Source of the DNA: Liolophura sinensis
Taxonomy: Eukaryota
NCBI RefSeq assembly: GCF_032854445.1
Contig: NC_088300.1
Span: forward strand, 60,598,969 to 60,662,968
Direction of reading: 5' to 3'
DNA: 64,000 bases
This document shows, piece after piece, positions 3,480 to 61,563 of this stretch (positions are counted from its first letter, which is position 1; each line of letters starts with the position of its first letter). The notes beneath the pieces were generated by a model. The model was not told the DNA's origin, searched no databases, and saw only the letters and a program-made list of their open reading frames with translations. The position numbers and the translations under genes are program-made.

Positions 3480-4901
3480 GAAGGTATATTGACATGAATG
3501 CAGATGGCCAGGTGAAAGACCAGTGTGTAGAATTATTGAGACAGCTAAAAACTGAGAAGCTGGATGTTTGCTTAGGTAAGGATCAGCTAATAAAGCATGA
3601 GGTGAGATGGAGACCTGAAGGGGTGATCCCTGAGGACGAGGAACATGCATTGTACCTGGCCACTCTTAGAGAGGTGTTCATTAACAAGATGAAGGATATG
3701 ATCATAGCCTCACTTTCACAGCAGAGGTCAAAAGGTCATGAACTTTATAATGAGGTTCTCCACCATGCTCATTTCTGTAAACGGAAAGGCGAGGATTTTC
3801 AAGGGAGGGAGCAACTCATCAAAGACTTGCAGACGGCCTTCCAGGAAATTTGGGAGACAGAAGATCCAGCAAAAACTGAAGGGAAAGGAAAGGCCAAGAA
3901 GGAAAGTGGCAGAAATCTTGCACGAGAAGAAGATAGTGACATTGGTAGCGATGTTGATGGAGTGCAGGAAGATTCAGAAATGTCTGAATTAGAGCGCCAG
4001 GAAGTGATCAGAGAACAATACGTTGCCATGAAAGATCCGCTGAAACAGTGGGGCATAAGCTTCAGTATGGAAGAGTACAGCGATCTCAGCGACCCAAATA
4101 AAGACGTCAAAGCGGAGTCCCTGAGGACTGTGAGAGAGTCTGTCCACACTAAGCCACTGGTGGTGTATGGAGAGTCAGGATGTGGGAAAACAGCCCTTAT
4201 GGCCAAGCTTGCTGAGGTGATCAAGAAAGAGACACCAGAGTCGGTTGTGTTGGTCAGGTTCCTGGGCACCTCTCCTCAGAGCTCCTCCATCCGTGACACG
4301 CTGGTCAGCATCTGTCACCAGATCCACAAGATCTTCGACCTTGAACCACTCAAGTTTGACCTTCAAGATAACTTCCCGTTTTTGGTGCAGTATTTCTCAG
4401 CTTTGTTGTGGAGGATCAAGTCAGTCTCGAAACCTCTTTACATCCTTCTCGACTCGCTGGATCAGCTTCAGCCCTCTGATCATGCATTTTCATTGAACTG
4501 GTTGCCCACACAGCTGCCTGACAACGTCCATATTGTATTATCCACTTTACCAGAAATGCATGGATTGATGACCACCCTGAAAAATCACCTAATGGAAGAC
4601 AAGCTGTTTTTTGAAGTGTTGCCCTTGCCGATGACAGATGCTAGCGACCTGCTGTTAAAAGTTTGGTCCAGATCAGTGGGTCGACAATTCACACAGCAAC
4701 AACGACAGCTCTTGAAAGACAAAGTATCCTCTGGAGCTGCACCATTGTATCTGAAACTTCTGTTTTATCAGGCCGTGAAATGGCACTCTTATACAGACGT
4801 GGTTGATGTTGACTTGGGATTGACAGCTCAGGCTGCAATCAACAAGCTTTTTGATGACTTAGAGATTCTGCATGGGAAAACACTGATAAGTCATTCCTTT
4901 G
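3480..4901 (+). CDS. NWD1: NWD1-like large exon encoding the NACHT P-loop NTPase domain (Walker A VVYGESGCGKTALMAKLA)
   Basis: A 1.4 kb open frame matches the 3494..5089 ORF track. The P-loop GESGCGKT and the downstream LVRFLGTSPQSS...SICHQI stretch align with human NWD1 LFGPPGIGKTALMCKLAE...LRLLGTSQMSS...SICFQV. Acceptor tttttcag, donor gtgagt at 4902. Confidence 0.85.
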
Positions 4902-4994
4902 GTGAGTACAACTCTACAGCATGTGTAAACTGTGATGTTATATTAAATATGGCTACTTTAGACACAGCCTTAACACTGAAAGAAGGTCTCTGTG

Positions 4995-5255
4995 GCCAAG
5001 TGTTTAGCATGCTAGTGCAGCATAATGGCCCAGAAGCCTCTCACAGTGACTCTGAGTTCAAGCCCAGCTCAAGCTGGCTTCCTCTCTGATCGTATGTGGG
5101 AATGTCTGCAGCAATCTGCAGATGGCCATGGGTTTACCCCGGACTCTGTCCAGTTTCCTTTCACCATATTGCTTGCTGTCATTGTATAAGTTAAATATTC
5201 TTGAGTATGGCGTAAAACTTCAATCATACTGCTATAATGTCATGAACTCAAAGTC
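4995..5255 (+). mobile_element. SINE family A copy in the NWD1 intron immediately after the NACHT exon
   Basis: gagttcaagcccagctcaagctggcttcctctctgatcgtatgtgggaatg...ccatgggtttaccccggactctgtccagtttcctttcaccatattgcttgc...cttgagtatggcgtaaaacttcaatc. It explains the apparent extension of ORF 3494..5089 beyond the real donor at 4902. Confidence 0.85.
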
Positions 5256-5273
5256 GTTCATTCATTCACTCAG

Positions 5274-5983
5274 GCTACATCTCTGCTGCCAAGAATGGCC
5301 TGAGTAACCAGGAAATGGAGCACCTGTTGTCTCTTGATGATGAGGTATTACAGGACATCTACCTGTATCACCTGCCTCCTAACGAACATGTCATCACATT
5401 ACCTTCCCTGATCTGGAGGCGTGTCGTCTACGACTTAGGCGAATACCTTGTGGAAAGACGAGCGGACGGACGCTCCATAAAGGCTTGGTATCACAGGCAG
5501 TTTCAGCAAGTGGCAGAGGAGCGCTATTTGCAAGGCGAGGTGAAGGTCAAAGTTCACTCAGCTATGGTGGAATATTTCCTGGGGGTATGGAGTGAGAAGC
5601 CCAAACCTCTAGATCTGTACAAGATGAAAAAGCGATATTACCCCGATGCCCATCGTCAGGTTCCCGATCAGCCTCTGCTTCTGGGGTCATCCGTGTTTAA
5701 CCTGAGAAAACTGACAGAGCTACCCCATCATCTGGTCTACAGCCAAAAGCTGACAGAGTTCAGGGCCTTGGTTGGCTGTAATTTAGAGTGGTTGTACACG
5801 AAGTGCAAAGCTGTGGGGCTCTCTGAGACACTAGATGATCTACAGCTGGCTATTTCTGCAGGGAAGGAAATGAACAAGGTTGACAAGATAGGTGACATCA
5901 TAGCTGACCTCCAATTTGTGACTGACGTGCTTCTTCTAGGAAATGACAACATTAGGGAAAATCCAGTCAATGTAGGTGTGCAG
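5274..5983 (+). CDS. NWD1: NWD1-like exon (GYISAAKNGLSNQEMEHLLSLDDEVLQDIYLYH...)
   Basis: Strong match to human NWD1 GYIVSSRHGLSEAELKDVLSLDDEVLQDVY...HRQ..V.ERYL. Acceptor cactcag, donor gtgaga. It is in frame with the previous exon after the SINE-containing intron. Confidence 0.85.
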
Positions 5984-7318
5984 GTGAGAAAGTCCCCGTA
6001 TAAATAAAACCTCATTGATTTTGATATCTTCATGGATATGATCTACAATTTCAGTAATGATATACTTGGGTTTATTATTTTATTCTGTTTTGTACATGTT
6101 TTGTTTTAGTGTTTAACAGCTGATAGGAAACATTGCACCTGTAAAAGCAGAGAGGTTTTGGGGTGGAACAAATCAGAGTAAACATTTACCACTTGTACCT
6201 CAAACTTACAATTTAAAGCTGTAGCCAAATCAGTAATTTTGATTGGAGCCTGCTACATGATTGGTCAGCGGCTGATCAGCTATGGCAAAGAAAAATGCAC
6301 TACACATGGTATTGTAAATGAATGATTCAGCATAAGAATGATGTGCGACTGAGTTGATCTGCTAATCAGATTAACGGTAACCTTAAAAACAAAGAGAATG
6401 ATTTTAAGGAAGAGGAATGTATGTCTAAACATGAAAAAAAACATTCTCTTTTGAGGCATATTTTGTATTTTTTAATAACCCACCCGTTTTTCTCATATTT
6501 TCTGTCCATGGGCAGGAATATTCAGAGATCGGAACACATTGGGAACAAGCGATTCTTAAGAAAACTGTAGTTTAAGGTTATTTGCATACCCCAAGAAGAA
6601 AGCCTAGAAGCTTTCTTGTACTGTTAATTGTAAGGCCACCTCGTATACTTCATATTAAGAAATAAAAACCAAGCTTTTCATGTATCACTGGGTCTTTTTT
6701 CATGTAAAACAAGGTTAATCTGTTGGGTGTGGGTGGCCTGAATATTGGTATGACATCATACTGAGCCAGAGTTTCCAGGTTTCATTACAGTAACACACCC
6801 AGATCCCACCATGTGGTTTGCATCCAGTCTTAACAGTATCAAAATAAATGTATTACATACACTGCACATACCCTAATTCCTCAACCTTTTCACATATGAA
6901 AGAGAATACATATTTTTAAATTGATTTTGGAGATAAAACTTTATTGGTTGGATTGGCCAGTTTCAGGGCTTAGCTAAATGTTGTAAAATTGTCAGTCAAA
7001 ACAGAATATAATGCCTTCAGAATATACATGTAGTTGAATAAACAGCTTTGAAACATGAGAAAAGGTTGAAGAATTATGGTATATATTAACCATGTCCGCG
7101 AATGTAAGTTTTATATGTAAGTTTTGTGTATATTTACTTCTGTGTTTTATAGCAAATGTATGCCAAACCTTATAAGATACATTTCTTCAGTATTCACAAC
7201 ATATTGCCTAATCCAGATTTAGCGATAAATTTGTCCTTGTTTTATTTTCTTAGTTGTCGTATATATTATTGGGCCATATTTAGTTTAACATGTACACATG
7301 CATGCATTCTCTTTCCAG

Positions 7319-7505
7319 ATCCTTGGCCAGCTAGGTACAGGTAGCCAGAAGTCCCCTGCCTTACAGACCTTGGTCAAAGAGGCCAGGGAGTGGTGCGGCT
7401 CCCACCCTCACCCTGTACTGGTGCCCCAACACCCCTGTCTGCCCTCACCAGGTGGCCACCTAAGACTGACCATCAATGCCTACTTGCAGACTCCAGGAGC
7501 TTTCC
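7319..7505 (+). CDS. NWD1: NWD1-like exon (ILGQLGTGSQKSPALQTLVKEAREWCGSHPHPVLVPQHP...GGHLRL)
   Basis: Matches human NWD1 QQAQSWFQLCAHPVLVPLGGFLQPPGGPLR. Acceptor ctttccag, donor gtaag at 7506. Confidence 0.8.
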
Positions 7506-8794
7506 GTAAGAAACACCATGCTTATAATAACTTGTGGATGAGATTGTTCTGTTAGCCAGATTTCTGAGCAGAGTGTAACGTAAAATTATTTGACTGCCTG
7601 TAAGCAAAAAGTTGTTGATTATCTGATGTGTTATGATCATTGCGGAGATCTTGATGGTACTAGTTACAGGTTCAGCCTAGTATTTTCGCTAATGCTATAA
7701 ACAGTTGGTTTATGTACATGTATATCCTGATGTACACAGAATATGTTATTGTAATAAACAGAGGGCAGGTAAGGATAAGGGAGGTGGGATGTTGAGGTGT
7801 AGAATAGACCAGAATTAGTCTGGGGGTAGGGGATGGAATTAAATACAAATACTGTTACAGTTATAAACTGAAATATTTAGCTCATTATAACTGGACAATT
7901 TATAATTATATAATTTTGTTTCGGAAATAATTTTCCTGCTACGGCGATGTAGCAGCAGTTTTATAGTCAATGAGGTGGTCAAGGTTATTATTTTCTCTAA
8001 AATTTTTTAACATCGTCCACCTTATTGATTACAAAACTGACGCTCGACACCCATAGTAGGAAACAATATTTCAATTCTGTAACCCTCCCCAAAATGTTGA
8101 ATGCAGGTATTCTCATAATTAAATAGGAAAAACTACAGTCATGTAAATACTTTCACACCCATTCGACGTAGCATTGGAAGATCCCATATTCTAAATTGTG
8201 CACAACGTGCAACGTCACCAGGCAAAACCATTGCTTCTAGACAAAAGGGGTACCAGTCTATATAGTCACTGATTTCAGTTCTGACGAGTATCAAACTGAT
8301 GGCAAATGCAGCTGTTGAAAATAATCTGTGAAGTGTCTTAAACGGTGAAACATTCGTTGGTGCCAGTCTACTTGTACTCTTCAACACTGACACGTTTCTT
8401 ACATGAAATGAACACTGCTGCCAAGTGTTCACATATCTTCTGCAGCACACTGGTTAATACCTGGTATGTGATACTTATCCATTCACTTTTCTCAGTGAAA
8501 ACAACATCCCATTTGAAAAATGGGAAAAAAAATTTGTCCGTTTTATTTATGACGAGCGTTTAATATGTGACCCAATGGGAATAAAAACATGAGATTTATA
8601 GTCTTTGACCAGCTTCCTTATATGTAATACGAAAGCATTGAAGGTTATAGAATTGTAGATTTATTCTTTGTGCTTTTATAAAACTTTTATGATTTTTCTA
8701 GTATCGGGTAGGTGTAAAAACATCTTATGAATGGATGACTTACAGAGAATGGAGGACTTTCTTTCATGATATAAACATTGATGTTTTTGAGCAG

Positions 8795-8984
8795 GTAACT
8801 CATCAATTTTACGCACCTGTCTGGCTCTGCGTGAGGACACTAACAGCCTCCTGGTGGTGGAGATGGGTGGCAAGGTGCACAACTCTGACACCCTCAAAAC
8901 CTATGATCTGGAGGATGGGCAGTCTGTGGCCACAACAGTACTTAGCAACAGGATGTGTAACATCAGACTGATAGACTCAGACAG
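8795..8984 (+). CDS. NWD1: NWD1-like exon at the start of the WD40 region (...TCLALREDTNSLLVVEMGGKVHNSDTLKTYDLEDGQSVATTVLSNRMCNIRLIDSD)
   Basis: Phase-consistent with its neighbours. Acceptor gagcag, donor gttagt at 8985. The 3' end of the exon is the seed of the downstream tandem array. Confidence 0.7.
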
Positions 8985-10260
8985 GTTAGTGTATGCTTCT
9001 TGATGACAGGTGTGAAATGGGCAACTGAATGTGTAACATCAGACTGATTGACTCAGACAGGTTAGTTTGTGCTTCTTGATGGCAGGTGTGAAATGGGCAA
9101 CTGAATGTGTAACATCAGACTGATAGACTTAGACAGGTTAGTGTGTGCTTCTTGATGGCGACAGGTTAGTGTGTGCTTCTTGATCACAGGTGTGAAATGG
9201 GCAACTGAATGTGTAACATCATACTGATAGACTTAGACAGGTTAGTGTGTGCTTCTTGATGACAGGTGTGAAATGGGCAACTGAATGTGTAACATCAGAT
9301 TGATAGACAGGTTAGTGTGTGCTTCTTGATGATGGGTGTGAAATGGGCAACTGAATGTGTAACATCAGATTGATAGACAGGTTAGTGTGCGCTTCTTGAT
9401 GGCAGGTGTGAAATGGGCAACTGAATGTGTAACATCAGACTGATAAACTCAGACAGGTTAGTGTGTGCTTCTTGATGACAGGTGTGAAATGGGCAACTGA
9501 ATGTGTAACATCAGACTGATAGGCTCAGACAGGTTAGTGTGTGCTTCTTGATGACGGGTGTGAAATGGGCAACTGAATGTGTAACATCAGACTGATATAC
9601 TCAGACAGGTTAGTGTGTGCTTCTTGATGACAGGTGTGAAATGGGCAACTGAATGTGTAACATCAGACTGATAGACAGGTGAATATGTGCTTCTTGATGA
9701 TAGGTCTGAATTGAGCAACTTCAGACTGAAAGTCTCAGGTGGGTGTGTGCTTCTTGATGACAGGTGTGAAATGGGCAACTGAATGTGTAACATCAGACTG
9801 ATAGACAGGTGAATATGTGCTTCTTGATGATAGGCCTGAATTGAGCAACTTCAGACTGAAAGACTCAGGTGGGTGTGTGCTTGTTGATTACAGGTGTGAA
9901 ATGGGCAACTGAATGTGTAACATCAGACTGATAGACAGGTGAATATGTGCTTCTTGATGATAGGCCTGAATTGAGCAACTTCAGACTGAAAGACTCAGGT
10001 GGGTGTGTGCTTCTTGATGACAGGTGTGAAATGGGCAACTGAATGTGTAACATCAGACTGATAGACAGGTGAATATGTGCTTCTTGATGATAGGTCTGAA
10101 TTGAGCAGCTTCAGACTGAAAGACTCAGGTGGGTGTGTGCTTGTTGATTACAGGTGTGAAGTGAGCAACTTTAGACTGATAGACTCAGGTGAATGTGTGT
10201 TTATTGATGGCAACAGGATCTGTAACATCAGGCTAATAGACTCAGTGAGGCTGCATGTTC
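8955..10260 (+). repeat. Tandem array, unit about 77 bp, about 16 copies, with diverged double units of about 140 bp from 9640. The unit is the last 30-40 nt of NWD1 exon 6 plus the first 45 nt of the intron, including the gttagt donor.
   Basis: The unit gtgtaacatcagactgatagactcagacag|gttagtgtgtgcttcttgatgacaggtgtgaaatgggcaactgaat recurs directly downstream of the true exon end at 8984. Confidence 0.9.
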
Positions 10261-10395
10261 AGATCGAGCTCTAGCTTACAGCTTCAGCTAATGCTTTAAA
10301 TCGAGATGTTTGTCTGGTACCCAGAAATGTTGATGGGTTACCTCAAGCACCTGTGAATAAATAAATAAAGTAAATTTACTTTCTCACCTGTGCAG

Positions 10396-10553
10396 GTATA
10401 TTCACTTGGAGTGGACAGGTGACAGGGATGATTACAACCCCACCTGTTACCAACGCCTGATCTACACCAGCTCCACCACTCTCGTCCCTCTACCCAAAGA
10501 TATCAGCTGGCTGAGTCTGTCACCAAGTGGAACTACTTTTGCTTACGCTGTTG
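10396..10553 (+). CDS. NWD1: NWD1-like exon (RYIHLEWTGDRDDYNPTCYQRLIYTSSTTLVPLPKDISWLSLSPSGTTFAYAV)
   Basis: Acceptor ctgtgcag, donor gtaagat. The frame continues from the exon ending at 8984 across the repeat-filled intron. Confidence 0.7.
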
Positions 10554-10770
10554 GTAAGATATCTTCTCTTCGCCCTGACACATATTCTGTTCACACCTCA
10601 CAGATACATGCATTGTTTTGAGAGATGGATTAAAGGTGACATTTTTTGATAAAGTTGTTGTTGTTAGTAGGCATCTCCTGTTCTTGTATAAGATTGTTTA
10701 AATTACCTTTTGTTGTAACAATTACTACCGTTGAATTTGCTTTTATTTATTTCATTTTCATTGCTTTTAG

Positions 10771-11671
10771 GAAATAATGTTTTTGTGCGACGCGGTGATT
10801 CCATTCTAAAATCAAGAAGAGTAACAAAGGAAGTAAAATTAAGTCAAACTGATTCCGTAACACACTTGGTTATCTCCCCTGATGACAATTATCTCGTCAC
10901 AACAACACTAGAAAATAAACAGTTTGTCTGGGAACTGGAAACTAACAGCTGTCTCCATGAATTGGGAAGTGCAGAGAAAAGTTTTGCCGGCAGCAGCAAG
11001 GACCTGCACTGCGTTCACATCACCAAAAAGAACTGGTTGATCTGTCCCGGGCTGAATTACAATACAAGGAACCAGATTTATGTGACAAATATAGAAACTG
11101 GGGAAAAAGTGTGTGAATTAAAGGGAGCAAGCAGCCATTACAGTATCGAGTTAATACGTATAAATCCTAGAGAAAATATCGTCCTTCTGGCAACTCGTGA
11201 CGACTGTGTGATCAACGGCATTGAGGATAAGTGGGGGATGCTGTGGAACCTGGAATCTGGAACGTTGTTGTCACAGTGCTCTGCTGTCAATGGCCCTTAC
11301 ACTGAGGTCAAACTGGTCGAGGATGGTGACGATATGTTTGTTATCTTGTGTGAAAAGCGCAGCCCTGTCATCAATATCCTGTGGGCTGGATCGGAGTCGG
11401 ATCCGTTAGAGACGGCGGTTTTGGTCCATGTTCTGGTAGCCCACAATGATTCTATCATACAGCTGGTCCTGAACGAGGACATACTGGTGTCAGCTTCACA
11501 AGACAACACTGTGAAGGTGTGGGACTTCAGAGAGATCAGGGCGGAGCTTCAGAGCCGGGTGCAAACAGCGGAATCACCAGAGGAAGCCAAGTTTTGCCCA
11601 TCCTTAGAGGAAGGAAAGCTACCAGTGCCGGGTAGGGATCAGATCAAAACCACAGCCATGGTAGTCTGCGA
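10771..11671 (+). CDS. NWD1: NWD1-like WD40-repeat exon (about 300 aa, ...NTVKVWDF...)
   Basis: Long open frame matching the 10731..11675 ORF track. Acceptor cttttag, gtaagt donor at 11672. The exon ends in phase 2 and continues in frame into the exon at 12970. Confidence 0.7.
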
Positions 11672-12969
11672 GTAAGTAATCTAAGGAGAATCACGATTGA
11701 TTGCAGGAATGATTTAAATAGTTATGTTTGATTTAGGTTTTATCTGATACTATTACATAATGCATTAGTCACATGGTTACTCAGTGATAGGATACAGAAA
11801 TATATGGTGTCAGTAACCTTTACTATATATTTACATGTGTCCTGTCTCTTAGTAACCAAGTTATTAGTTTATTATAATATTTTTCGGGATAATATTACAT
11901 GTGTATACATGTACATTTGTGGTCAACATCAAATATTATACTAGCAAGCAATAACATGTCACCCAAAAATCGGTTTAGTCTCGCAATACAAAAGATGGCA
12001 TGGGATACCATTACTTCTGTGAGGAACTTAAATTTTTTTCTTTATAGTGTGGTAAAACAAGGATGGGAGGAATTGAGTCAGTTTCAAACCAGGTAGATTA
12101 ATAAAGGCCAGGTGCATTTTTCTGTGTGGAAGTTGCTAGTTTCATCGTGATTCTTTTAGACTTTCATTGTTGTGGTGTTGTACACAGTGCATGTAAATGT
12201 TATGTTATATTTCACTTAAAGGGAAAGACCTCTAAAAATCGAAGTAGGCATCACCAGGTGGACCGCTAAAAACTTATGCTCAAATATATTTACATTCATT
12301 TTTTTAGATTTTTGAGAAAAGAATTAAAGGGGCTCAATCATTTAACTTCTAAGGAGGGTTTTGTGGACCATACCATCAGAGGTTATGAACTCTGACATCA
12401 CAGGAAGTTTGTCCAACTCTAATCTTGACAATGAATGTTGGAATAACTCATTTTACCCATGAGTGAAAGATTACTGAAATAATGTTCCCAATAATTCCTT
12501 CATTCTGGTGAACATAAGAAAAAATGGTGATGTGACGTCAGAATTGCTGGATACCATCAGTGTGGCTCATAAAACCCACCATTGTTTTCAGATATTTGAA
12601 TGCCTTTCAACACTGTCAAAAAAATCTAAAAAATAAATGAAAGTATTTTTACACATAGTTTTCAATTGTCTTTATGAGGAACCTTACTTCATGTTTTAGC
12701 TTTCTTTTACTTTAGAGTTGACACCCTGGTGGTAACTGAGCCTGGGAATCTCAGACACTTCACCAATATCAAACCTATATCAAAATATAATCAGTATATT
12801 ATGTTCACTTGTGGCTTTAAGTCAGGAGGTGTCATAAACTCCTGGTGAAGTGTCATGGTTTCCCCGGTCTCTACCCAGTTTTCCCCACCCATAAATTTGA
12901 CTCTTATCGTGAATAAAATAAGCACCATATCAAAGACAGTAAATTGAGTACTCATTTTCACTCTTCCAG

Positions 12970-13151
12970 GAACCGAGCTGTGGTTGGCAGCAAGGATGGG
13001 TTCCTGATATTTTATGACCTGGTCACCTGCACACAGTTGGGTCACATCAGGCCATGCACAACTGAGATCATTGGTATACTGGTTACGAAGAACAAACAGC
13101 ATGTTGTGGCTGCATCTCCTAAGTCACTTTTCATACTGGAATCTAATGGAG
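12970..13151 (+). CDS. NWD1: NWD1-like WD40 exon (NRAVVGSKDGFLIFYDLVTCTQLGHIRPCTTEIIGILVTKNKQHVVAASPKSLFILESNG)
   Basis: Acceptor ctcttccag, donor gtaaac. Phase-consistent with its neighbours. Confidence 0.7.
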
Positions 13152-13304
13152 GTAAACATAGTGGGTACTGCCTAGATTTGCTAATGCATTCCCTAAAACT
13201 GCTAACCTTTGTATCAAAAAGTGTGCAGGGCTGAACATAAACTTCATACAAGTGGTATTGATGGATTCTTTGGGTAAATCTGAGACGAGTTAAAGGTATT
13301 CATA

Positions 13305-14595
13305 TGGGTGGGTCATATTCAGGTGGGTCTGAGGGATTGTTACAGCTCGGTCTGAGGGATTTGTACAAATGGGTCATTGCAGGGGTAGAAATGACGTCTG
13401 TCTACCTGTTGGCGACAGGCAATTTTTATCGGCGACAGGTCACAAAAAAACTCAGCTGTTGCAGCGACAGTTAGACACAAAAAGTTTTCAATCATGTTTA
13501 AGTCAATATCCATGCATGTCTGTGTTTCTGAAGTCTGTATATTTACTAGGCCTTTCCATAATCAGAATGTTGATGCAAAACTTCGTCATGTTCGGCCCAA
13601 ACAAGTGAACACTGTTAGGACGTCATCTAGTGGACAAGGCCTTCGTCAACGAACCTATCGCCTTTATGCTTTCAATTCCGAGACCAAACATACCTTCAAC
13701 ATTGAAGAACGCGCTTCGGTTATTACAGCAACAGCAAAATCAGATCTGCAAAAAGCCGTTTTTGTTACGTAAAATGCCTTTTGTAACACTTTTTCTTAAG
13801 GGTCCACAGCTATCCTGGAAGGAATAGTGTCTACAGGTGCCACTCAACCTGAACTAGAGAACAGTCAAAGGAGAGCAGCGAATCAATCAAAAGTTGAAGT
13901 GTCACCCATGACTCAGAAGTTTCTCAACATTGCATTTGCAGAAGATTAAATCAAATAAATAAATAACAAAATGTGAAATTAATATATATAGTCTCGGCCT
14001 CTTCCTAACGCCCAAAATTGTACAGCTCTAAGACCACATTGTTTACTTTTCTCGCTCGAGGACTATGCGTGGCATTGCAGGTGTAAAGGGGAACAACTCA
14101 AGACACACATAAATCTAAACGCACACGACAGAGTGGTTTTCCTCGGTCGTTTCCCTTGAATGGGAAGCGCATGCATACGCAAGCACAGACTGAACTGTCG
14201 GAAGTAAGTTTCAATTTAATTGATCGACTGTGCAGAAGTCCCAATCATGACAGAATATTGAATAAAAAGGAAAATGGTACTGAAACCAAATATTCTTGTA
14301 ACACAGTAGACTGATATTGCTTTGCCAAGGTGACGGTGTTGACAGAAAATTTTATGTTCACAAAAATGTGACAATGGCGACTTTCTAAAAGTAACACTGA
14401 TGGGGACAGGTGACTGGTAGAAAAAAAATCTACCGGTTTCTGTGACAGGCGGTTTTAAAAAAACACCTCTTGGTCTGAGGAATTTGTACAGCTGGGTCAG
14501 AGGGATTTTGTACATCTGGGTCAGAGGGATTTGTACCGCTTTGTCCGAGGGATTTGTACCGCTTGCTCTCAGGGATTTGTACCGCTTGGGGTGAA
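13305..14595. mobile_element. Putative transposable element or composite repeat in an NWD1 intron, with a CpG-rich unique core flanked by related end blocks
   Basis: Shared blocks (gg)tctgagggatttgtacag repeated 2-4 times plus a gacaggtSac motif at 13310-13445 and 14400-14590. The core 13450-14400 is unusually CpG-rich for this window and carries unassigned ORFs 13494..13772 and 13630..13827. Confidence 0.35.
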
Positions 14596-14737
14596 AGATA
14601 CATATAGGCATAATTACTGTACATGTACTCTGATTAGAAAATGTGCCGGTTGTAAATATACCGGTTCAGTGAAATGTAGTTATGTCAAAAATACCAGAGA
14701 CTTGTGTCTGTATCTGTGAAAAGATTTCAGGGTCAAA

Positions 14738-14900
14738 ATGGGGCCTCCTTAGCTCAGTTGGTTTACACGCTAGCGCAGCGTAATGACCCAGGAGCCTCTC
14801 ACCAATGCAGTCGCTGTGAGTTCAAGTCCAGCTCATGCAGGCTTCCTCTCCGGCCGTGTGTGGGAAGGTTTGTCCATAAGCTAGCACAAATGTCAGTTTT
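14738..14900 (+). mobile_element. tRNA-derived SINE, family A, copy with intact tRNA-like head (ggggcctccttagctcagttggtt...gagttcaagtccagctc)
   Basis: Box A-like TAGCTCAGTTGG and box B-like GAGTTCAAGTCC. The body ctcatgcaggcttcctctccggccgtgtgtgggaaggt is shared with more than 12 other copies. Confidence 0.8.
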
Positions 14901-14951
14901 GTGGTAAACTGTCCACACGTGTGCTTATACCTGAATCACATCTTTCTTACA

Positions 14952-15074
14952 GATACTATTATCAGGGAAATCACTGCCCCAAAGAAAATCAACTGTTTAT
15001 CAGAGGCAAGTGACATCATAGTGGCTGGTCATGGAGGGATGGAAGCATATGGTTATGCCTGGAATCTACACACA
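14952..15074 (+). CDS. NWD1: NWD1-like exon (DTIIREITAPKKINCLSEASDIIVAGHGGMEAYGYAWNLHT)
   Basis: Acceptor ttcttacag, donor gtgtgt. Phase-consistent. Confidence 0.65.
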
Positions 15075-15639
15075 GGTGTGTCTGCAAGCAGTTCATAAAG
15101 GAATCCAAGCTTATATTTAGGAGCAAATCTGTTCAGCTAGCATTTACAACATGCTAATGACACTTCCGATATAAGAATATAAGATCTCACTAGCATGGCA
15201 CTAACTCACAACTACATGTAGCATACACAGGCTTCCAGGTTTCCTGGACCATTTCACTGATCTGCTAATGTAGAGTTGCTTCACTAGTTTGCTGATATCG
15301 TCATCATTTGCATTGTTTGTTGTTGTTTATTTTTTTTTTTTAGATAAAAATATTACTGCCCAGTCAGGGTACTTGAAATGTGTGTGTAAGTGTTTTCAGC
15401 AGGTTAATGTATTAGGACTACGTGTACAACATTATCATTTATATCCAGTCTTTGGGATTCGTATCACAATAACATACATCTGTTTGCTTTGCACACTGGT
15501 TCTACGACTGTCAAGTCCCTCACATATTCTCATATTTTAATATGTATTTTTTTTCTTACTGTTATGTAGATCTTCACTTCTTAGAACTTGCTGATTTTAT
15601 TGTTTTTCTAAAATGGTACATCATGTTTTTGGATTTCAG

Positions 15640-15710
15640 GTGAATTGCTTGCCAAGTTTCAAGGACTGTATGGTTTTCACTGGATAGCCATTAATTCCAA
15701 AGGAACTCAT
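15640..15710 (+). CDS. NWD1: NWD1-like exon (GELLAKFQGLYGFHWIAINSKGTH)
   Basis: Acceptor ggatttcag, donor gtatgt. Phase-consistent. Confidence 0.65.
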
Positions 15711-16149
15711 GTATGTATATCTTCTAACTACCTCTTATTTCAGTGGTTGGAAACCTGTGGCCATACACATAAGTATTTCAGTGTGTCAACATATACCTTT
15801 ACAAATTACTGTCACCAAGACAGTAATATTTATGCATGTGGTCTTAACTTTAAAGGTTAAGCAAAACCTGTCAGAGTCTTGCGTGTGTATATATTTTTCT
15901 TCTGCTATGAATTTCACTAAACATATCTGGGTTTTCACAGATTACACCAAGAACTTTGTTTTCCATATTCTTGATGTCCTGGAAAAGTTACCTTCAGAAA
16001 TAATGTGACAAAACATAGGGTATGGGCCTGGTCATTATTCATGATGTAAAGTCTGTTCTTTTCTGTTTTATCTCATTGTAATTTTAGTGAAGCCACCTCA
16101 TGAGTCAGGGATTCCCTCTCCCTCAATGAGGCCTTGGTGACAGTAAGTG

Positions 16150-16300
16150 GTCGTTTTTGCTGGTTTGGCAGCTTGCAAAATCATGAAGAGTTACTTGACC
16201 AGCGTCTGTATATCATAAGGGAAAGTTCGTTAGTAGCTTGCCAAGGGTCAGTGGTTTACCCTGGGCTCTCCCCACCAAACTAACCACCATTGTAGCAGTG
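16150..16300 (+). mobile_element. SINE family A-related variant copy
   Basis: gggtcagtggtttaccctgggctctccccaccaaactaaccaccattgtagcagtgaaaacttcttgagtgtggcattaaacaacaatc. Confidence 0.55.
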
Positions 16301-16431
16301 AAAACTTCTTGAGTGTGGCATTAAACAACAATCAGTCGAACCATACCTGTGTATACTACAAGGTTTGATGTTGAAAAAACAAATCAGATATTTCAAACTC
16401 TCCAGTATTTTTAATATCTTTCACTTTTCAG

Positions 16432-17121
16432 CTTGGAGGTTCATTCTTTGAGTATCCAGTCCTCTATTCAGTGGAGTCAGGTGATATCCTGACAGCCCTG
16501 GACAAGGCTGATGTGATGATGTCATCACAGTCCTTCCTGGTGTTTAGCCCAGATGACCGCTACCTCGCTGGCGGATCCACTGACGGGAGCGTCCGGGTTA
16601 TTGATGGCCAAAAGGGAAAATACCTCTGCCGCTTTCAGCAACTCTCCTCAGCCATACAGGGCTGTTTTTCACCAGACAGCAATATTTTGGTCACGACCGG
16701 TTTCCGCACGTTGTTCTTGTGGTCAATGGAACAAGGTACTTTGTTATGGTCACTTTCTCGGCACCACGACTTTGTGGTCAAGCTGAAGTTTTGTCTGGAT
16801 GGACGGTATCTGGTGACCTCCTCCAAAGACAAGAGAATTGTGGTTTGGGATTGGAAGCATTTATACTCAGTCTGTGATCACATGGCTCACTGTCCAATAG
16901 ATGTCATGGATGTGGCAGACGATCTGACATCGGTTATCTATGCTCCCGATAGCGTCAGTTATGTAGCTATTCTCAAACCTAACCCGTACATGACCCAAAA
17001 GTTGAATGGTCAGATACAGCACACTCTGGCATCTCGTTTCCATGACGCCCAAGCTGTGGCCCTCTCATTCTCCAGTCAGGGCCTGACAAGGGAGACAACT
17101 AGGGCTTGTATTCTCCTGTAA
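16432..17121 (+). CDS. NWD1: NWD1-like terminal coding exon, WD40 repeats and stop (…TRACILL*)
   Basis: A 230-codon open frame matches the 16471..17121 ORF track, with WD40 motifs such as LVTSSKDKRIVVWDW. The C-terminus ACILL* resembles the human NWD1 C-terminus SQVCLIV. AATAAA at 17211-17216 lies about 90 nt downstream. Confidence 0.75.
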   Translation, partial: LGGSFFEYPVLYSVESGDILTALDKADVMMSSQSFLVFSPDDRYLAGGSTDGSVRVIDGQKGKYLCRFQQLSSAIQGCFSPDSNILVTTGFRTLFLWSMEQGTLLWSLSRHHDFVVKLKFCLDGRYLVTSSKDKRIVVWDWKHLYSVCDHMAHCPIDVMDVADDLTSVIYAPDSVSYVAILKPNPYMTQKLNGQIQHTLASRFHDAQAVALSFSSQGLTRETTRACILL

Positions 17122-23289: not shown

Positions 23290-23770
23290 AAACAGATGGG
23301 CTAAAAATGAGCTACAACTGAGCCAGTTGGACAACAGCTGAGCCGCAACTGAGCCAGCTGGACAACTGAGCCACAACTGAGCCAGTTGGACAACAACTGA
23401 GCTGCAACTGAGCCAGCTGGACAACTGAGCCACAACTGAGCCAAATGGACATCAACTGAAGCCAGTCGGACAACAGCTGAGCCAGCTGGACAACAACTGA
23501 TCCAGTTTGACAACAGCTGAGCCGCAACTGAACCAGCTGGACAACTGAGCCACAACTGAGCCAGTTGGACAACAACTGAGCCAATTGGACATCAACTGAA
23601 GCCAGTTGGACAACAGCTGAGCCAGTTGGACAACAACTAAGCCAGCTGGACAGTAACTGAGCCAGATGGACAACAAGTTTCAATTACAAAGCTAGCTGGA
23701 CAACATCTGAGTCAGTTTGACAACAACTAAGCTGGCTGGACAACAACTGGGCCACAACTGAGCCAGTTGT
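23290..23770. repeat. Minisatellite of about 20 bp, CTGAGCCAGYTGGACAACAA-like, in MVP intron 22
   Basis: Degenerate tandem periodicity. The minus-strand ORFs 23242..23683 are repeat artefacts. Confidence 0.85.
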
Positions 23771-25347: not shown

Positions 25348-25579
25348 CTTAAGAAATCAAGAACTTAAGGTTCAAAACCTTTCTAAAAATCAATAAACTG
25401 AAGAGAATCTTTTCACACGAGACAGAATAAGTCACTCATAAAAGCAAATTCATTTTGGTGTCTGAGACCATTTTTTCCTCTCAGAACAACATACCCGTCA
25501 TATCACTACCCAATAACTTGTGGTATAAAGAAGTGGAAAATAATAGTATAAAAAAATTTTCAGTAATTCAGAAACTTAC

Positions 25580-25680
25580 TTAGTTGCGATCTCAATGGCC
25601 ATCTGAACAGACTTCATCAAACTGTCTCTCATCTTGAGGTCTACTGGTTCTATACTCTGGATGTCAATACTTGTGACCAC
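25580..25680 (-). CDS. MVP: MVP exon 20 ([33 protein letters not shown])
   Basis: Matches human [34 protein letters not shown]. The acceptor side abuts a junction-derived tandem array. Confidence 0.9.
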
Positions 25681-26310
25681 CTGGTAACAGAATACCATGG
25701 ATTTTAATACATGTGACCAACTGATAACAGAATAGTTCTGGATATCAATACTTGTGACCAAATGATAATAGATTACTCTGGAATTCAATACATGTGATCA
25801 ACTGATAACAGAATAGTTCTGGATATCAATACTTGTGAAACCCTGGTAACAGATTACTCTGGATGTCAATACATGTGACCAACTGATAACAGAATAGTTC
25901 TGGACATCAATACTTGTGACCAAATGATAATAGATTACTCTGGAATTCAATACATGTGATCAACTGATAACAGAATAGTTCTGGATATCAATACTTGTGA
26001 CCACCTGGTAACAGATTACTCTGGATGTCAATACATGTGACCAACTGATAACAGAATAGTTCTGGACATCAATACTTGTGACCAAATGATAACAGATTAC
26101 TCTGGATGTCAATACATGTGACCAACTGATAACAGAATAGTTCTGGACATCAATACTTGTGACCAAATGATAATAGATTACTCTGGATTTCAATACATGT
26201 GATCAACTGATTACAGAATAGTTCTGGATATCAATACTTGTGACCAAATGATAACAGATTACTCTGGATTTCTATACTTGAGATCAACTGATAAAAGAAT
26301 ACTGTGGATG
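25681..26310 (-). repeat. Tandem array, about 40-bp units in an 80-bp higher-order repeat, about 15 copies. It duplicates the first 29 nt of MVP exon 20 plus the acceptor ttaccag.
   Basis: Units such as attactctggatgtcaatacatgtgaccaa|ctgataacag recur upstream, in the gene sense, of the real acceptor at 25680/25681. Confidence 0.85.
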
Positions 26311-26603
26311 TCGATGCTTGTGTGATGGCCTGGTAAAAAAAATAGGTATCATTACTGTCATTACTCTGGATGTCAATACTTGTGACCAACCGATAACAGA
26401 ATACTTCTGGATATCAATATTTGTAACCACCTGACAAGAGAATACTTCTGGGTATTAATACTTGTCAGCATATGACAACAAAATACTTCTGGATATCAAT
26501 TCTTGTGACATAACAAATGATAAGAGAACACTCCATATAACATTACATGTACATACACGTATTACTGGCACTTACTGGCAAGCCCCATCAGACTTCAACC
26601 TAC

Positions 26604-26734
26604 CATGTTGTTCACATCAAATCTGAGCTGAGGTTTAGGAGGATTTCCAAACACCGCAGAATGGATGATGTCAGAGGAGTGACGATGAAACTCATCAAAT
26701 GTCACCTGGGCTACAGACGCTCGGATACAGCTGC
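26604..26734 (-). CDS. MVP: MVP exon 19 (GSCIRASVAQVTFDEFHRHSSDIIHSAVFGNPPKPQLRFDVNNM)
   Basis: Matches human [28 protein letters not shown]. Donor gtaggt. Confidence 0.85.
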
Positions 26735-46822: not shown

Positions 46823-47020
46823 ATGGCTGAAACACCCAGTGAGTTTAAGCTGAAAAACCCTCCAATGGATGGAGTGTCTGCTGTTAAATTTGGTCCTAAC
46901 TCCAGCCAGCACCTGCTGGTATCATCATGGGACTGCACTGTGCGGCTATATGATGTCATCAGTAACAATATGAGGTTGAGCTTCCCACAGCAAGCCCCAG
47001 TCCTCGATTGCTGTTTTCAT
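46823..47020 (+). CDS. BUB3: BUB3 coding exon 1 (MAETPSEFKLKNPPMDGVSAVKFGPNSSQHLLVSSWDCTVRLYDV...)
   Basis: Matches human BUB3 [64 protein letters not shown]. Donor gtatgt. Confidence 0.9.
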
Positions 47021-47500
47021 GTATGTACATGGGCTTGGTTGTTCAAAAGTGTATTAGATAATACTGATATTAAGTTATATTATATATTAATATATTAATT
47101 TAACAAAAACCCAGCTACCAAATGGAACAGTAGCAGACTTAGTTCATATTAATAAACTGTTCCACAATTATTTGAGCCAAGTGCAAAACTGAAGACTTCA
47201 AGTTAAATCTGCTATGAAGTCTCAAGACTGTTTTGAACAACCAGCTGGTTCATATTACAAAACATGAAAAAATGACTTAAAGTAAATAGTAACAAAGAAA
47301 ATATGCATTAAATACACATGTAGTCTCTTTGACAGTGGTTGTTCTGAACATATATTTGAAACTTGGCAGATCCAGTATGGTCATGCATATGCACGGTACA
47401 AAGGAAGACTTTGCTGGCTCAAAGCGAAGTCCTTATAGTATGGAAAGTTTCTCTGTTGTCTTATTAATTTCATTGTCTAACTTTCCTGACCATTTTTCAG

Positions 47501-47570
47501 GATTCAGTTCGAGCGTATAGTGGAGGATTGGACAAAGTTCTGAAAACTTTTGATTTTAACACTAATGCAG
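47501..47570 (+). CDS. BUB3: BUB3 exon 2 (DSVRAYSGGLDKVLKTFDFNTNA)
   Basis: Matches human DPTHAWSGGLDHQLKMHDLNTDQE. Acceptor ttttcag, donor gtaagt. Confidence 0.85.
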
Positions 47571-48170
47571 GTAAGTGTGTCTGCAATAAAAGTATGATTG
47601 TTGCCAGCGAGAAAAAGTTGTATTATCAGCATGTCAATAAAAATAGTTGATAGTTTAATTTTGACCCAATGCATGTCTTTATCTGCTTGTCAGTAAAAAT
47701 AGTTGATAGTTTAATTTTGAACCAATACATGTCTTCATCCTATGGAATTCAATCAGCAGACTGATACACAGGTTTTTAAGTATGATATCAAAACTGGCCT
47801 TTTTTCTGGGCCTCCTTTTCTCTGGTGTAAGTTGAGAACAACATCATTGTCAAGTCAGGCTGTCTGGAGTGTGGTGTGTAAAATCAAGCTAATAAGTGAA
47901 GAAAATAAGCATGAAACCTGTATGTGTATGGCACCGTATAAAGTAGTGTTAGCTGGTATTCTGACGTCTGGAGCAATATTCATCTGCTCAGATTACATTC
48001 ACATCATGATCTACTTGTAATAAATTTGTCGTTGTCGTTCTCGCTATTTTCATCCGCCTCGACAAATTTTATAGCAGCAATGAATGGACTCCAAAGTACA
48101 TGTGTTTTCATTGGTGGTCCACTATTATGAGTAACTATTGTATATATTCCCTATTGTTGTGTTTGTACAG

Positions 48171-48322
48171 AGAGAAGTGTAGGAATGCATGACGCCCCTA
48201 TACGCTGTGTTGAGTTCTGCCCAGATGCTAATGTCATTGTCACAGGAAGTTGGGATTCTACTGTCAAACTATGGGACCCACGGACACCCTGTAATGCTGG
48301 CACCTTCTCACAACCTGACAAG
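48171..48322 (+). CDS. BUB3: BUB3 exon 3 (ERSVGMHDAPIRCVEFCPDANVIVTGSWDSTVKLWDPRTPCNAGTFSQPDK)
   Basis: Near-identical to human GTHDAPIRCVEYCPEVNVMVTGSWDQTVKLWDPRTPCNAGTFSQPEK. Confidence 0.95.
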
Positions 48323-48800
48323 GTAGGTGGACTCGCATCATGTCCGCAGGTTTTTTTGTTTATCCAGTTTCAATTGAAATTCTGTTTTTTGTGCCTGATT
48401 ATACACATACTGTTACTTGTTCAGAGATATGACCTGAAATGTACTGGTAATTCCTCAAAAATTACTGCATTATTTACAAAAAAATTAAGTTTAATACAGT
48501 TTATTTAATTTTTTTTTTTAATAGACATTCTTGCTAGAATGTTTCATATGTCAAAGAAGTAATTTTTGCAGCAACTCTACTATGACATTTTCAAAGATAT
48601 TAATCTAGAAAAACCGATTTTAATTCAGGAAAGCCTTATGTCTACTGAAAGTAGTCATCTTGTGAGAGTTTTTAAGGTATGAGATATAAAGACCTTGATT
48701 TTTAGAAGTTTAATACAAATCAAACAGTTTTATTTCTAAAGTTTTGCCTGCTTTGAAAATCCTGACATTTTCATTTAAGTTATATCATTCTCTGTTACAG

Positions 48801-48984
48801 GTATACACCTTGTCTGTTTGTGGGGACAGACTAATTGTTGGAACTGCAGGGAGAAAGATTTTGGTTTGGGATCTCCGAAATATGGGTTATGTACAACAAC
48901 GACGAGAATCCAGCCTGAAATATCAGACACGATGCATTCGAAGTTTCCCTAACAAACAAGGCTATGTTCTCAGCTCCATTGAAG
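48801..48984 (+). CDS. BUB3: BUB3 exon 4 ([61 protein letters not shown])
   Basis: Near-identical to human [62 protein letters not shown]. Confidence 0.95.
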
Positions 48985-49534
48985 GTACCACTACATACAT
49001 CAATACTTTGTAACTTTTGTGCGGTGCTTTTGGATTGGACACATCATAAGATTATTAGCAAGTAGCCAGTTTTCAACACAGACTCAGACCATAACAAAGA
49101 CTTAATAATATGCAGTATTAGTAATTACTTGTTATAAAGTGTTCACCATCCTTTGGGGTCCAAGCGAGCACTGGTTGGTTTTGGAGCCAATCCAGTATGA
49201 CTGGTTATGCATGTTGTGAGATGGAATCTGGTGTCTTCAGCATGGTGTTTTAGAGAGGCAGCACCATGCACATGTCATTGTGGACATTGGGAGCTGCATG
49301 GGAAGAATCCAAGGGATGGTGAAAGGGACATTCAACTCAAACCTTTAAGTTGGGAACCTTTGTCTTGTGAATTGTTTTACACCAGGCACCCCAGTTTCCT
49401 CACTGTCTGCCATAAAAAATTTATTTTACACATCAGTCAAATAAATAAAAGCCCAAGCTACCAGGCAGCTAAACTGTTAAAGGCTCTTGCATAAAGGATA
49501 AAGTGTTATCTAACTCTCATTTCTCTGCTCCCAG

Positions 49535-49754
49535 GTCGTGTTGCAGTGGAGTACTTGGATCCCAGCCCTGAGGTACAGAAGAAGAAATATGCATTTAAAT
49601 GTCACCGTGTGAAGGAGCAGGGCAAAGAGAAGATCTACCCTGTCAATGCTATAGCCTTCCATAACGTCCACAACACATTTGCCACAGGCGGCTCTGACGG
49701 CATTGTGAACATCTGGGACGGCTTTAATAAGAAGAGACTGTGTCAGTTCCACAA
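49535..49754 (+). CDS. BUB3: BUB3 exon 5 ([73 protein letters not shown])
   Basis: Near-identical to human [72 protein letters not shown]. Confidence 0.95.
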
Positions 49755-50529
49755 GTAAGTCTTTCTGTTTGTCAGTCCCCGGAGACAGATTCAGCAAAGC
49801 CAGTTTTGACATAAATCAGTCAGTTCCTGAATCATGCATTTAAGGCTTATTTGAATGTTTTTTTATACTCTAATGCATCACCTAGACTTCATCTGGGCAC
49901 AGTGTCACAAAACGGCGTACAACTTTTTTTTATCATACAATTGTCGTACGATATTTTGTGTGTCACCATTACTGTACCGTTGCCCTACATGTGGGGTTAT
50001 CGTACATGCAGGATATCTATGTGAAACGGGGTCCCGATGAGGATGGAGAGTTTGAAATATATTTGAGTCACACCAGCCCCTGATAAAGTTGGAGACCAAT
50101 ATACAGCTCTTCGTCATTACAGCACTTTCTCATTACAGCACTGTTGTTATGGGGACAAACCTGCCTGGCATGCTGTTTATGGTGCGCACTACATGATGTT
50201 CGTTTGCCACCTAAAACCTGTATGATATATAATATAGGAACAGATACAGTGACAAATGAGCGAAATATCATGGCTTTCGGTGAATAATTAGTCAAGATAG
50301 TCAAGCATCAGAGTGTAAAGAAGATACAAAATCTGGAGGCTGTGTTATACGGAATTACGTGTTTGTAATGAACTGTGTTATAATGAGAGAGGGTGTACAC
50401 GTAACTACAGTGTACTGTGCGTAGTCGTTAAGGCAAGCCAATGAGTGTTCTGTCCTCCAAGAAATTTATCGTATCATAGACACTTTTTCTGGGAGATAAT
50501 TGTCCCTGCTGTATATGTGATAGGGACAG

Positions 50530-53194: not shown

Positions 53195-53700
53195 CATTTA
53201 TAAAGAGCTTAAAGACAATATTGGACACACTGATTCCCTGAATAGTTGGAAGAGAGCAAATTTGGACATACTGTTTCTCTTACCAGCTGGAGAAGAGAAA
53301 ATTTGGACACACTGATTCCCTGAATAGTTGGAAGAGAGCAAACTTGGACATACTGTTTCTCTCACTAGCTGGAGAAGGGCAAATTTGGACATAATGTTTC
53401 TTTCACCAGCTGGAGAAGAGCAAATTTGGACATGCTGATTCTCTGAATAGGTGGAGAAGAGCAAATTTGGACATGCTGTTCCTCTCACTAGCTGGAGAAG
53501 AGCAAATTTGGACATGCTGTTTCTCTGAATAGGTGGAGAAGAGCAAATTTGGACATGCTGTTCCTCTCACTAGCTGGAGAAGAGCAAATTTGGACATGCT
53601 GTTTCTCTCACTAGCTGGAGAAGAGTAAATTTGGACATGCTGATTCTCTGAATAGGTGGAAAAGTGCAAATTTGGACGTGCTGTTTCTCTGAATATCTGA
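53195..53700. repeat. Tandem repeat of about 60 bp (agagcaaatttggacatgctgtttctctcactagctggagaag), about 8 copies, just 3' of BUB3
   Basis: Direct periodicity. Minus-strand ORFs 53198..53825 are artefacts. Confidence 0.85.
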
Positions 53701-53809
53701 GAAAAAAAGGGAAATACGGATATGCTGCCTTTACAGATAGCTGGGGAAATGGCTAGTGTTTCAATTTCAGTTCCATGCATTACCTGTAATATTTCATTTT
53801 CAGAGACTT

Positions 53810-53945: not shown

Positions 53946-54879
53946 TGATGACGTATACTATCACAGCCCTGTCTTGGTCCATAAGCTTACCTTGAACACC
54001 TCTTTACTTCCCTTGCTTATATACAATTTGTCTGTCTGTACTCATAGTCAACGCAGCTATCAGTTCCAGGTAGCTGTTCCCATGTGTCATTACTAATAAA
54101 CCCACACAAGCATAAAACTATAGTGGAAACTGGATAAATTCCAACTCCCATGTTTGAATGCCTGCTCCTCACAGCCCACACAAGGGAGATAACTACTGAC
54201 ATTACTAGCAATTAGTATATTTTGTACATCTTGTTTAATCTGTTCCTTAATTGTTTGAGAATTTTTTTTTTATTCCTCAGTGTTGATTATGGGTCCCTTC
54301 TATGTCATTACTGGTGAGACTGATCCTAAACAATCAGCCAGTATGCTTGTCAAAAGGTCTAACTTGCCTAGTAGTGGCAGTGGTAATTGTATACAATGTA
54401 CATGATTCCCCTCACTGTGAGGAGTATGCATTTAAACATAGTGGTTGGAGTTAGAATTTATCCAGTTTCCACTAGTTTCATGCTTGTGTGGGTTTACCAG
54501 TGATGACACATGGAAACACCTACCTGAAACTGATTGCTGAGAAGACTATGAGAACAGACAGACACATTACTTGGCGGCCAACAGTAGTGTATTGAAGCCA
54601 GCACTCAAAGTACAGAGGTGTTCAGGGTAAGCTTATGGAACAAGGCAGGGCTGTGATAGTACACGAAATCACAGCCCTACAAAGCTACATCAAACCATAA
54701 TACTAGTCACTGTGGTACAAGTGAAATATTCTTGAGTGGCCTCTTTTTCATCTTAGTCTCATCCCTGTATTTTGTCATCACTCAAATGAGAACAGATATT
54801 TTGGACATCTAGGAACCAATCCAAAAAAACTTTACCCACCTACAAAGATACTGAGGTTTACCTTATTCCACCACAAAAA

Positions 54880-61400: not shown

Positions 61401-61563
61401 GACAGAACTGTAAACATATGAAAGTTGGCACATTGGTCTCCTACCAGAAGTCACCATTTTAATGAACCAAGCCTGACGATGAAAGAGAATGTAAATGCCA
61501 GGCAAACAGACTGAGTCCTCAGGCAGTATTTGGGGTCCTTGTACATGAAGAACAGCTACTTAC

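Follow-up and report, generated by a model that had tools for sequence, protein, structure and literature searches.

Which relationship links an exon of the MVP gene to the tandem repeat that fills the intron in front of it, given that each repeat unit carries a copy of the 3′ splice site together with the beginning of that same exon? This question was addressed in the window, i.e. the whole 64-kb stretch of DNA analysed here, and it has two sides: from where the repeated sequence derives, and what its copies do. Taking all the evidence together, we consider it highly probable that the array is a junction-spanning minisatellite of the type for which the term "mirage" is used in amphioxus (PMC3087553, PMC3902484), that is to say a tandemly duplicated 40-nt segment which is non-coding and is tolerated as a by-product.

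The first-pass annotation of this locus had assigned the exon to MVP, on the minus strand, as exon 20, and both assignments agree with the homology searches. A tblastn search with human MVP (serving as a probe only) placed the gene on the minus strand, from ~43880 to ~21095, and the concatenated exon pieces matched the Pfam Vault repeats and MVP_shoulder with E values of 1e-39 to 1e-49. In addition, the peptide of exons 19-21 matched MVP structures in PDB (E 2e-40), with the join between exons 19 and 20 included in the alignment. Counting the tblastn pieces (18 upstream, plus at least 2 gaps) makes the exon beside the array about the 20th coding exon. Conservation of its start, VVTSIDIQS, extends to the MVP proteins of human and rat, and the preceding exon ends with ...RFDVNNM in phase 0, the donor being AACAACATG|gtaggt at 26604 (here and below, the vertical bar marks the splice junction). 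The parts of this region, in the sense of the gene and with the repeat units numbered U1 to U21, are the following.

26604..26732, minus strand: MVP ~exon 19, upstream of the array (tblastn, sequence read, PDB alignment across the join)
26529..26603, minus strand: unique part of the intron, 75 nt, with the donor GTAGGT (local alignment to the unit)
26362..26528, minus strand: distal diverged units U1-U4, of 45, 41, 41 and 40 nt
26300..26361, minus strand: odd unit U5, 62 nt, with 20 extra nt and a long pyrimidine tract (CCTATTTTTTTTACCAG|)
25693..26299, minus strand: homogenised block U6-U20, made of two alternating unit types (TRF period 81, shift identities, identity matrix)
25693..25732, minus strand: U20, directly upstream of the real acceptor, with TTAAAATCCATGGTA versus TTGACATCCAGAGTA in the other A-type units
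25653..25692, minus strand: terminal unit U21, taken as the functional junction, with 12 nt of intron end (25692-25681, ttctgttaccag) and 28 nt of exon (25680-25653)
25580..25680, minus strand: MVP ~exon 20, 101 nt, with the donor AA|gtaagt at 25579

Tandem Repeats Finder detected a repeat with period 81 at 25656-26322 (8.2 copies, 89% matches, score 1033) and a second stretch with period 41 and 3.5 copies at 26365-26506. When the window was searched with a 40-nt probe representing the real junction (TTCTGTTACCAG|GTGGTCACAAGTATTGACATCCAGAGTA, minus strand 25692-25653), 18 further copies were recovered in register, with 3-13 mismatches, reaching 26483. Specifically, as read from one assembly of one individual, the array spans 26528-25653 on the minus strand (876 nt) and consists of 21 in-register units in the head-to-tail organisation of a minisatellite, namely the real junction and 20 extra copies. 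The repeat units within the intron amount to 848 nt, so that ~95% of the 923-nt intron is occupied, and the array extends for 28 nt more into the exon, where the repeat terminates at 25653. The earlier description, which counted about 15 copies between 25581 and 26310, is correct for the 15 extra copies lying inside that interval but falls short of the total: beyond 26310 the array goes on for ~220 nt, with the 62-nt unit followed by the four diverged units, up to 26528. The start proposed there does not hold either, position 25581 being at the 3′ end of the exon (25680-25580). In addition, a 24-nt degenerate core of the unit, with 3 mismatches allowed, gave 17 matches in the 64-kb window, all on the minus strand, all 17 within the array and none at any other place; across 100 shuffles it gave 0 matches. 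No inverted repeats were found at the array, and JGI metagenome contigs, when scanned with the core of the unit, gave no match.

Each unit is 40-41 nt long and combines the 12 nt of the intron 3′ end with the first 28 nt of the exon, reading ttctgttaYcag|KTGGTCACAWGTATTGAYATCCAGAGTA on the minus strand. The in-register alignment to the real junction bears out the earlier view of the units as an acceptor plus the 5′ end of the exon, and the exon match on which that view depended is indeed present, although the copied exonic portion is 28 nt long and reaches the 29 nt initially proposed only where the next unit begins with T. Similarly, the higher-order repeat reported as 80 nt is dimeric, as had been seen, but its period is 81 nt (40+41), with a further period of 162 nt. 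In this case, the proximal 16 units are arranged as 8 dimers of 81 nt with a super-period of 162 nt, and the identity of the array to itself is 0.72 when shifted by 81 and likewise 0.72 when shifted by 162. The two alternating unit types are an A-type of 40 nt, TTCTGTTATCAG|TTGGTCACATG...AGAGTA, and a B-type of 41 nt, ATCTRTTAYCAK|KTGG...AGAACTA. The block identity matrix shows that alternate 81-mers in the interior of the array are 96-99% identical, whereas the edges, i.e. the distal units and the exon-proximal dimer, have diverged to 80-89%, a pattern of concerted evolution inside the array from which the edge units are excluded.

The individual units add detail to this picture. At the distal end U3 keeps CAG|G, and U4, which has 3 mismatches to the real junction, carries CGG in place of CAG. 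The odd unit U5 is placed between the old distal units and the homogenised block, and its copy of the exon start (GCCATCACACAAGCATCGACATCCACAGTA) is the most diverged in the array. By eye, the acceptor that looks strongest in the whole intron is that of U5, with a T8 pyrimidine tract (TTTTTTTTACCAG|G), an out-of-frame site located 649 nt ahead of the real one. Two B-type units, U13 and U17, bear the ACCAG|G core of the real junction, which indicates either that the array and the working junction have exchanged sequence or that an ancestral state has been retained. In conclusion, judging from the comparison of the units, the array has grown by tandem duplication, with the establishment of two unit types and their re-amplification in blocks of 81 nt and then of 162 nt.

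With regard to the remaining part of the intron, local alignment of the 5′ 75 nt to the repeat unit revealed no significant similarity (score 15 vs a shuffle mean of 13.3, with 469 of 2000 shuffles scoring as high). The idea of an older degenerate unit in this portion is thereby left unsupported, and for the same reason no weight was given to a 4-nt GAGT microhomology at the distal edge. Since the intron past these 75 nt is made of repeat units, exon-derived copies must also supply the branch point and the pyrimidine tract for the real acceptor.

No ORF was found to cross the array. Stops recur in all frames, the longest ORF measures 77 aa and lacks a plausible splice context, and no frame runs through the copies in phase with the flanking exons, as coding repeats or a duplicated exon would do. 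When a repeat-borne ORF joined to the exon was used in a protein search, the exon part alone was matched, in other species. The repeat-borne ORFs pointed out at first pass therefore exist and were rightly dismissed as artefacts, given the stops in all frames and the early stop met from each decoy acceptor. Specifically, 12 of the 20 extra copies keep a pyrimidine-rich tract followed by AG, the splice signal being thus retained by many but not all of them, and the remaining copies read CAT or CGG. Counting the real site, there are thus 13 AGs, with first exonic bases at 26430, 26329, 26287, 26206, 26125, 26044, 26004, 25963, 25882, 25842, 25801, 25720 and 25680. From each of the 12 decoy acceptors, in the phase set by exon 19, a stop is reached within 14-48 codons. 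The A-type decoy sites add 40+81n nt, which corresponds to frame +1; of the B-type sites, which are in frame, five out of seven have CAT for CAG, and translation from the other two, which are intact, ends after 14 codons. The acceptor of U21 is the sole one that gives an open frame matching MVP. In conclusion, the array copies are non-coding decoys, with one terminal unit crossing the exon/intron boundary as the authentic junction, and, on the basis of reading frame and homology, the last acceptor (25680) would be the working one.

Simple measures give no obvious sign that the decoys are weaker sites than the real acceptor: pyrimidine counts are alike (11-14 out of 20 positions in the decoys and 12 out of 20 at the real site), and a TTGAY motif resembling a branch point, missing from the real site, is found at -23/-24 in most of the decoys. 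The silence of the decoys is thus not explained by sequence strength alone, an observation that we count against the by-product reading. The real site is distinguished by CAG|G, vs CAG|T in the decoys, and by an AG-free run of 38 nt, compared to 12-15 nt in the 12 decoys (23 nt in U5). This long run exists because of a change in U20, which reads CCATGGTA where other units read CCAGAGTA or CCAGAACTA: the two adjacent substitutions GA>TG (CCAGAG>CCATGG), by which both internal AGs are lost, and the change TTGAC>TTAAA together leave the 38 nt ahead of the real site free of any AG. Such clearing could be either the result of selection on 3′ splice-site choice or the drift of an edge unit.

The direction of copying was assessed by comparison with other species. 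In three distant species (public contigs L004, L005/6 and L007-9) a phase-0 acceptor is located right before V[VI]T[SN][IV]D[IV]QS, and no approximate junction copies were found upstream of the exon by the criterion that detects those of the window, in a search covering up to 2.5 kb, or ~1.1-1.3 kb in L006-L008, where the contigs start sooner. As the acceptor position is common to three distant species without copies, the exon is the source and the array is lineage-specific; on the strength of this comparison, copying can be taken to have run from the exon to the repeat, with the array added to an existing intron. In addition, since the position and the phase of the intron are old, being found in the three distant species, the array enlarged the intron and did not create it, the growth being perhaps from ~90 nt to 923 nt.

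The array described so far is on the acceptor side, as was originally stated: it is the 3′ splice site that is repeated, and the copies are found ahead of the exon. The first-pass annotation also mentioned donor-side arrays of the same kind in the window, and such arrays do exist. Three more arrays span a junction, of which two belong to MVP and the third to the NACHT/WD40 gene next to it.

35230-32187, minus strand: donor-side junction array in MVP, 77-nt unit, ~37 copies, ~3 kb
24136-23920, minus strand: young donor-side junction array in MVP, 36-nt unit, 6 copies, 98% identity
8945-10209, plus strand: donor-side junction array in the NACHT/WD40 (NWD1-like) gene, 1.26 kb, ~17 repeats

In the 77-nt unit, 49 nt from the 3′ end of an exon (GPCEYIPPIE[VIL]NIID[KE]R) are followed by the donor and ~28 nt of intron; the array has 93% identity and a 384-nt higher-order period, and the intron is inflated by 3 kb. 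The 36-nt unit contains 11 nt of exon plus CTG|GTGAGT... (TACAAGATCTG|GTGAGTGCTCAGTTGTTTGTAAGCA). In the NACHT/WD40 gene the exon end ...AACATCAGACTGATAGACTCAGACAG|gttagt (also ...CATCAGACTGATAGACTCAGACAG|gttagt) is repeated, with periods of 76, 60 and 130.

A close relative is represented by Logan contig L001 (SRR26493816), in which exon 21 is 100% identical to that of the window at the aa level and 88% at the nt level; the contigs of this relative begin inside the next intron, ~exon 20 being outside their reach. On L001 a single copy of the exon-22 donor junction is present (1010-1040), where the window has six (24136-23920). The absence of this donor array in a close relative implies that junction arrays turn over quickly. 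By contrast, the GGCTCAGTTG array, which lies wholly within this intron at some distance beyond the junction, is common to L001 and the window. In the window, a purely intronic 20/59/120-nt array (TTGTCCAACTGGCTCAGTTG) is found at 23308-23748, with a counterpart at 1188-1325 of L001; being common to the window and the close relative, it is older than the adjoining junction array. The core of this array, GCTCAGTTGTT, is similar to the intron portion of the 36-nt junction unit.

Tandem arrays with a period of at least 17 account for roughly one sixth of the 64 kb. The genes next to MVP are the NACHT plus WD40 (NWD1-like) gene, upstream (3494-17121, plus strand), and a BUB3 orthologue, downstream (46823-49758, plus strand). 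The repeats at 28524-28416, 40210-40046, 38580-38431, 39635-39533 and 61416-57993 were checked and turned out to be plain intronic repeats. The one at 57993-61416 has an 85-nt unit present 41 times with 91% identity and fills an intron of a minus-strand gene, its flanks showing that neither junction is included. Between BUB3 and this 85-nt array there are two 41-nt arrays, at 53221-53703 (12 copies) and 54869-55487 (15 copies); the unit of the latter holds GATG|GTAAAA on the minus strand, and no adjoining exon was seen in its flanks. Within MVP, three of the eight arrays span a junction, vs 0.6-0.8 expected at random (Poisson P 0.02-0.04), which gives a weak hint that array placement is perhaps not purely random.

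These observations allow the other possible readings of the MVP array to be weighed. That the copies serve as functional decoy 3′ splice sites, tuning MVP output via unproductive isoforms, or slowing or ordering the removal of the intron, appears improbable to us. Such a role would be in keeping with the 12 copies having a pyrimidine tract and AG, most of them with the TTGAY motif 23-24 nt upstream, with the premature stops to which all decoys lead, as expected of splicing coupled to decay, and with the lack of both internal AGs in U20, which could reflect selection on site choice. On the other hand, published mirages yielded no aberrant mRNAs, the orthologous intron works without the array in other species, and a sister array is missing in the close relative, such arrays appearing and vanishing fast; moreover, four unrelated units in two genes are more readily accounted for by a mutational process than by regulation having been invented separately four times. 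A coding function, either as an in-frame 27-codon repeat in MVP or as alternative exon 5′ ends giving isoforms, deserves next to no credence: a period of 81 nt is divisible by three, and the array does contain short ORFs, but stops are found in every frame, including those met after 14 codons by the in-frame decoys, and the alignment of MVP to solved structures leaves no room for an insert at this position.

The repeat might also be real and owe its copy number or its higher-order pattern to mis-assembly. The assembly is a single one, the collapse or expansion of tandem arrays is a frequent assembly error, and the repeat was not found in the protein collection or in JGI metagenomes; we nevertheless judge this very unlikely, because the non-identical units, with their A/B alternation, 162-nt super-period, diverged edges and odd interrupting unit, bear the signature of evolution rather than of stacked reads, and because three other arrays made of different units have the same junction-spanning design. 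It is extremely unlikely, in turn, that a satellite or mobile element already present in the intron provided the sequence from which the exon start was recruited. The identity of sequence between exon and repeat, and nothing further, would suit such an origin, whereas distant species and mammals, which do not have the repeat, conserve both the start of the exon and the position of its acceptor, and the unit, devoid of terminal inverted repeats, occurs nowhere else in the 64 kb.

We are thus brought back to the junction-spanning minisatellite, which is most likely the by-product of a genome producing minisatellites at high rate and not a functional device. The mechanism of duplication, the use of the acceptors in vivo and the fate of the decoy transcripts are what we infer in the following model. 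A 40-nt segment, in which the final 12 nt of an old MVP intron are joined to the initial 28 nt of the following exon, was duplicated in tandem, the likely cause being replication slippage or unequal exchange, as in other minisatellites, and the duplicated segment then expanded into the intron. Two variant units were subsequently fixed as an 81-nt dimer and amplified again in 162-nt blocks, the interior copies being kept homogenised and both edges being left to drift. Only the last copy is contiguous with the exon body and the donor, and splicing there would represent the sole productive outcome; if one of the 12 AG decoys further upstream were used instead, a premature stop and probably nonsense-mediated decay would follow. 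According to this model, exon definition would favour the terminal unit, and transcripts spliced at decoys would be removed by nonsense-mediated decay. The array may be tolerated because in-register exchange always leaves the terminal unit continuous with the exon, and because this unit alone precedes the exon body and the donor.

A more far-reaching proposal is that junction arrays are preferentially made at splice junctions by a transcription- or splicing-linked process, possibly in an animal outside the cephalochordates, and we regard it as rather doubtful. The hints in its favour are weak, namely the share of MVP arrays placed at a junction (three of eight vs 0.6-0.8 expected, P ~0.03) and the two adjacent substitutions by which U20 has lost both AGs. 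If such a junction-linked origin were true, the MVP array, with its 12 intact decoys and the AG-cleared zone preceding the real site, would be a natural experiment on how the spliceosome chooses the last of many near-identical 3′ splice sites. At a more practical level, junction arrays mislead gene predictors, through spurious ORFs and false acceptors, and inflate introns, and their recognition betters annotation.

Compared to known systems, the MVP array is similar to ordinary intronic minisatellites and VNTRs in its period of tens of bases, its concerted evolution and its dimeric and tetrameric higher-order units, and MVP itself also contains several arrays confined to introns. What sets it apart is a unit in which conserved coding sequence (28 nt) is joined to a working acceptor. 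The Rogers model, "introns from tandem arrays" (Zhuo et al. 2007), and the segmental duplication generating an intron (PMC3265369) have in common with it a tandem duplication that multiplies splice signals within a gene. In those cases, however, an intron is created, whereas the MVP intron is old and has been enlarged by the array.

A closer parallel is offered by the 37-bp VNTR in intron 7 (IVS7) of human F7, in which the repeated 5′ sites are functional yet silent, the first site being chosen by 5′-to-3′ scanning (PMC1557585). In both cases the terminal unit spans the exon/intron boundary and the real site adjoins identical pseudo-sites that are normally silent. In F7, however, the array is on the donor side, with copies of the 5′ splice site located 3′ of the exon, an arrangement found in the three donor-side arrays of the window and not in the MVP acceptor array, and the most upstream site wins; in the MVP acceptor array the most downstream copy must be used, which requires a selection rule unlike that of F7, such as exon definition or the choice of an AG downstream of the branch point. 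F7 is, in addition, a single human locus and not a genome-wide habit. Because its real acceptor is preceded by 12 intact decoys, the MVP array provides a clean natural test of 3′ splice-site choice that mirrors the donor-side model of human F7.

The closest resemblance is to mirages. They were first seen in Branchiostoma Adh3 (Canestro et al. 2002, as cited in PMC3087553) and then described in the globin genes BflGb6 and BflGb9 (PMC3087553) and in PGBD5 (PMC3902484), the troponin C gene (TnC) being a further case cited in PMC3902484; all published hosts are cephalochordates, and a full-text literature search returned no genome-wide study. Mirages occur at 5′ and 3′ boundaries, with units of 10-160 bp, AG/GT kept by many copies, a copy number that varies between haplotypes, and an array interior that evolves in concert and edges that do not (PMC3087553). 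The genes bearing them are normally spliced by RT-PCR, without aberrant mRNAs, and the splicing of BflGb6, whose mirage is on the acceptor side, is undisturbed (PMC3087553). The MVP array shares with them the tandem units spanning a splice junction, the terminal unit that is the working junction, the existence of donor-side and acceptor-side cases, its own being acceptor-side like that of BflGb6, the many copies with AG/GT, a unit length within the 10-160 bp range, the homogenised interior with diverged edges, and the presence of several arrays per gene. It differs in being larger, with 20 extra copies, and in having an 81/162-nt higher-order structure not described in the mirage literature searched. 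Mirages have been reported so far in only a handful of amphioxus genes, and the window contains four junction-spanning arrays in two neighbouring genes, one of them with 37 copies over ~3 kb. In conclusion, the MVP array displays every structural hallmark of a mirage; it is a new example of an already described kind of repeat and not a new type of element, large and well structured, in a gene and a window that are unusually rich in such arrays.
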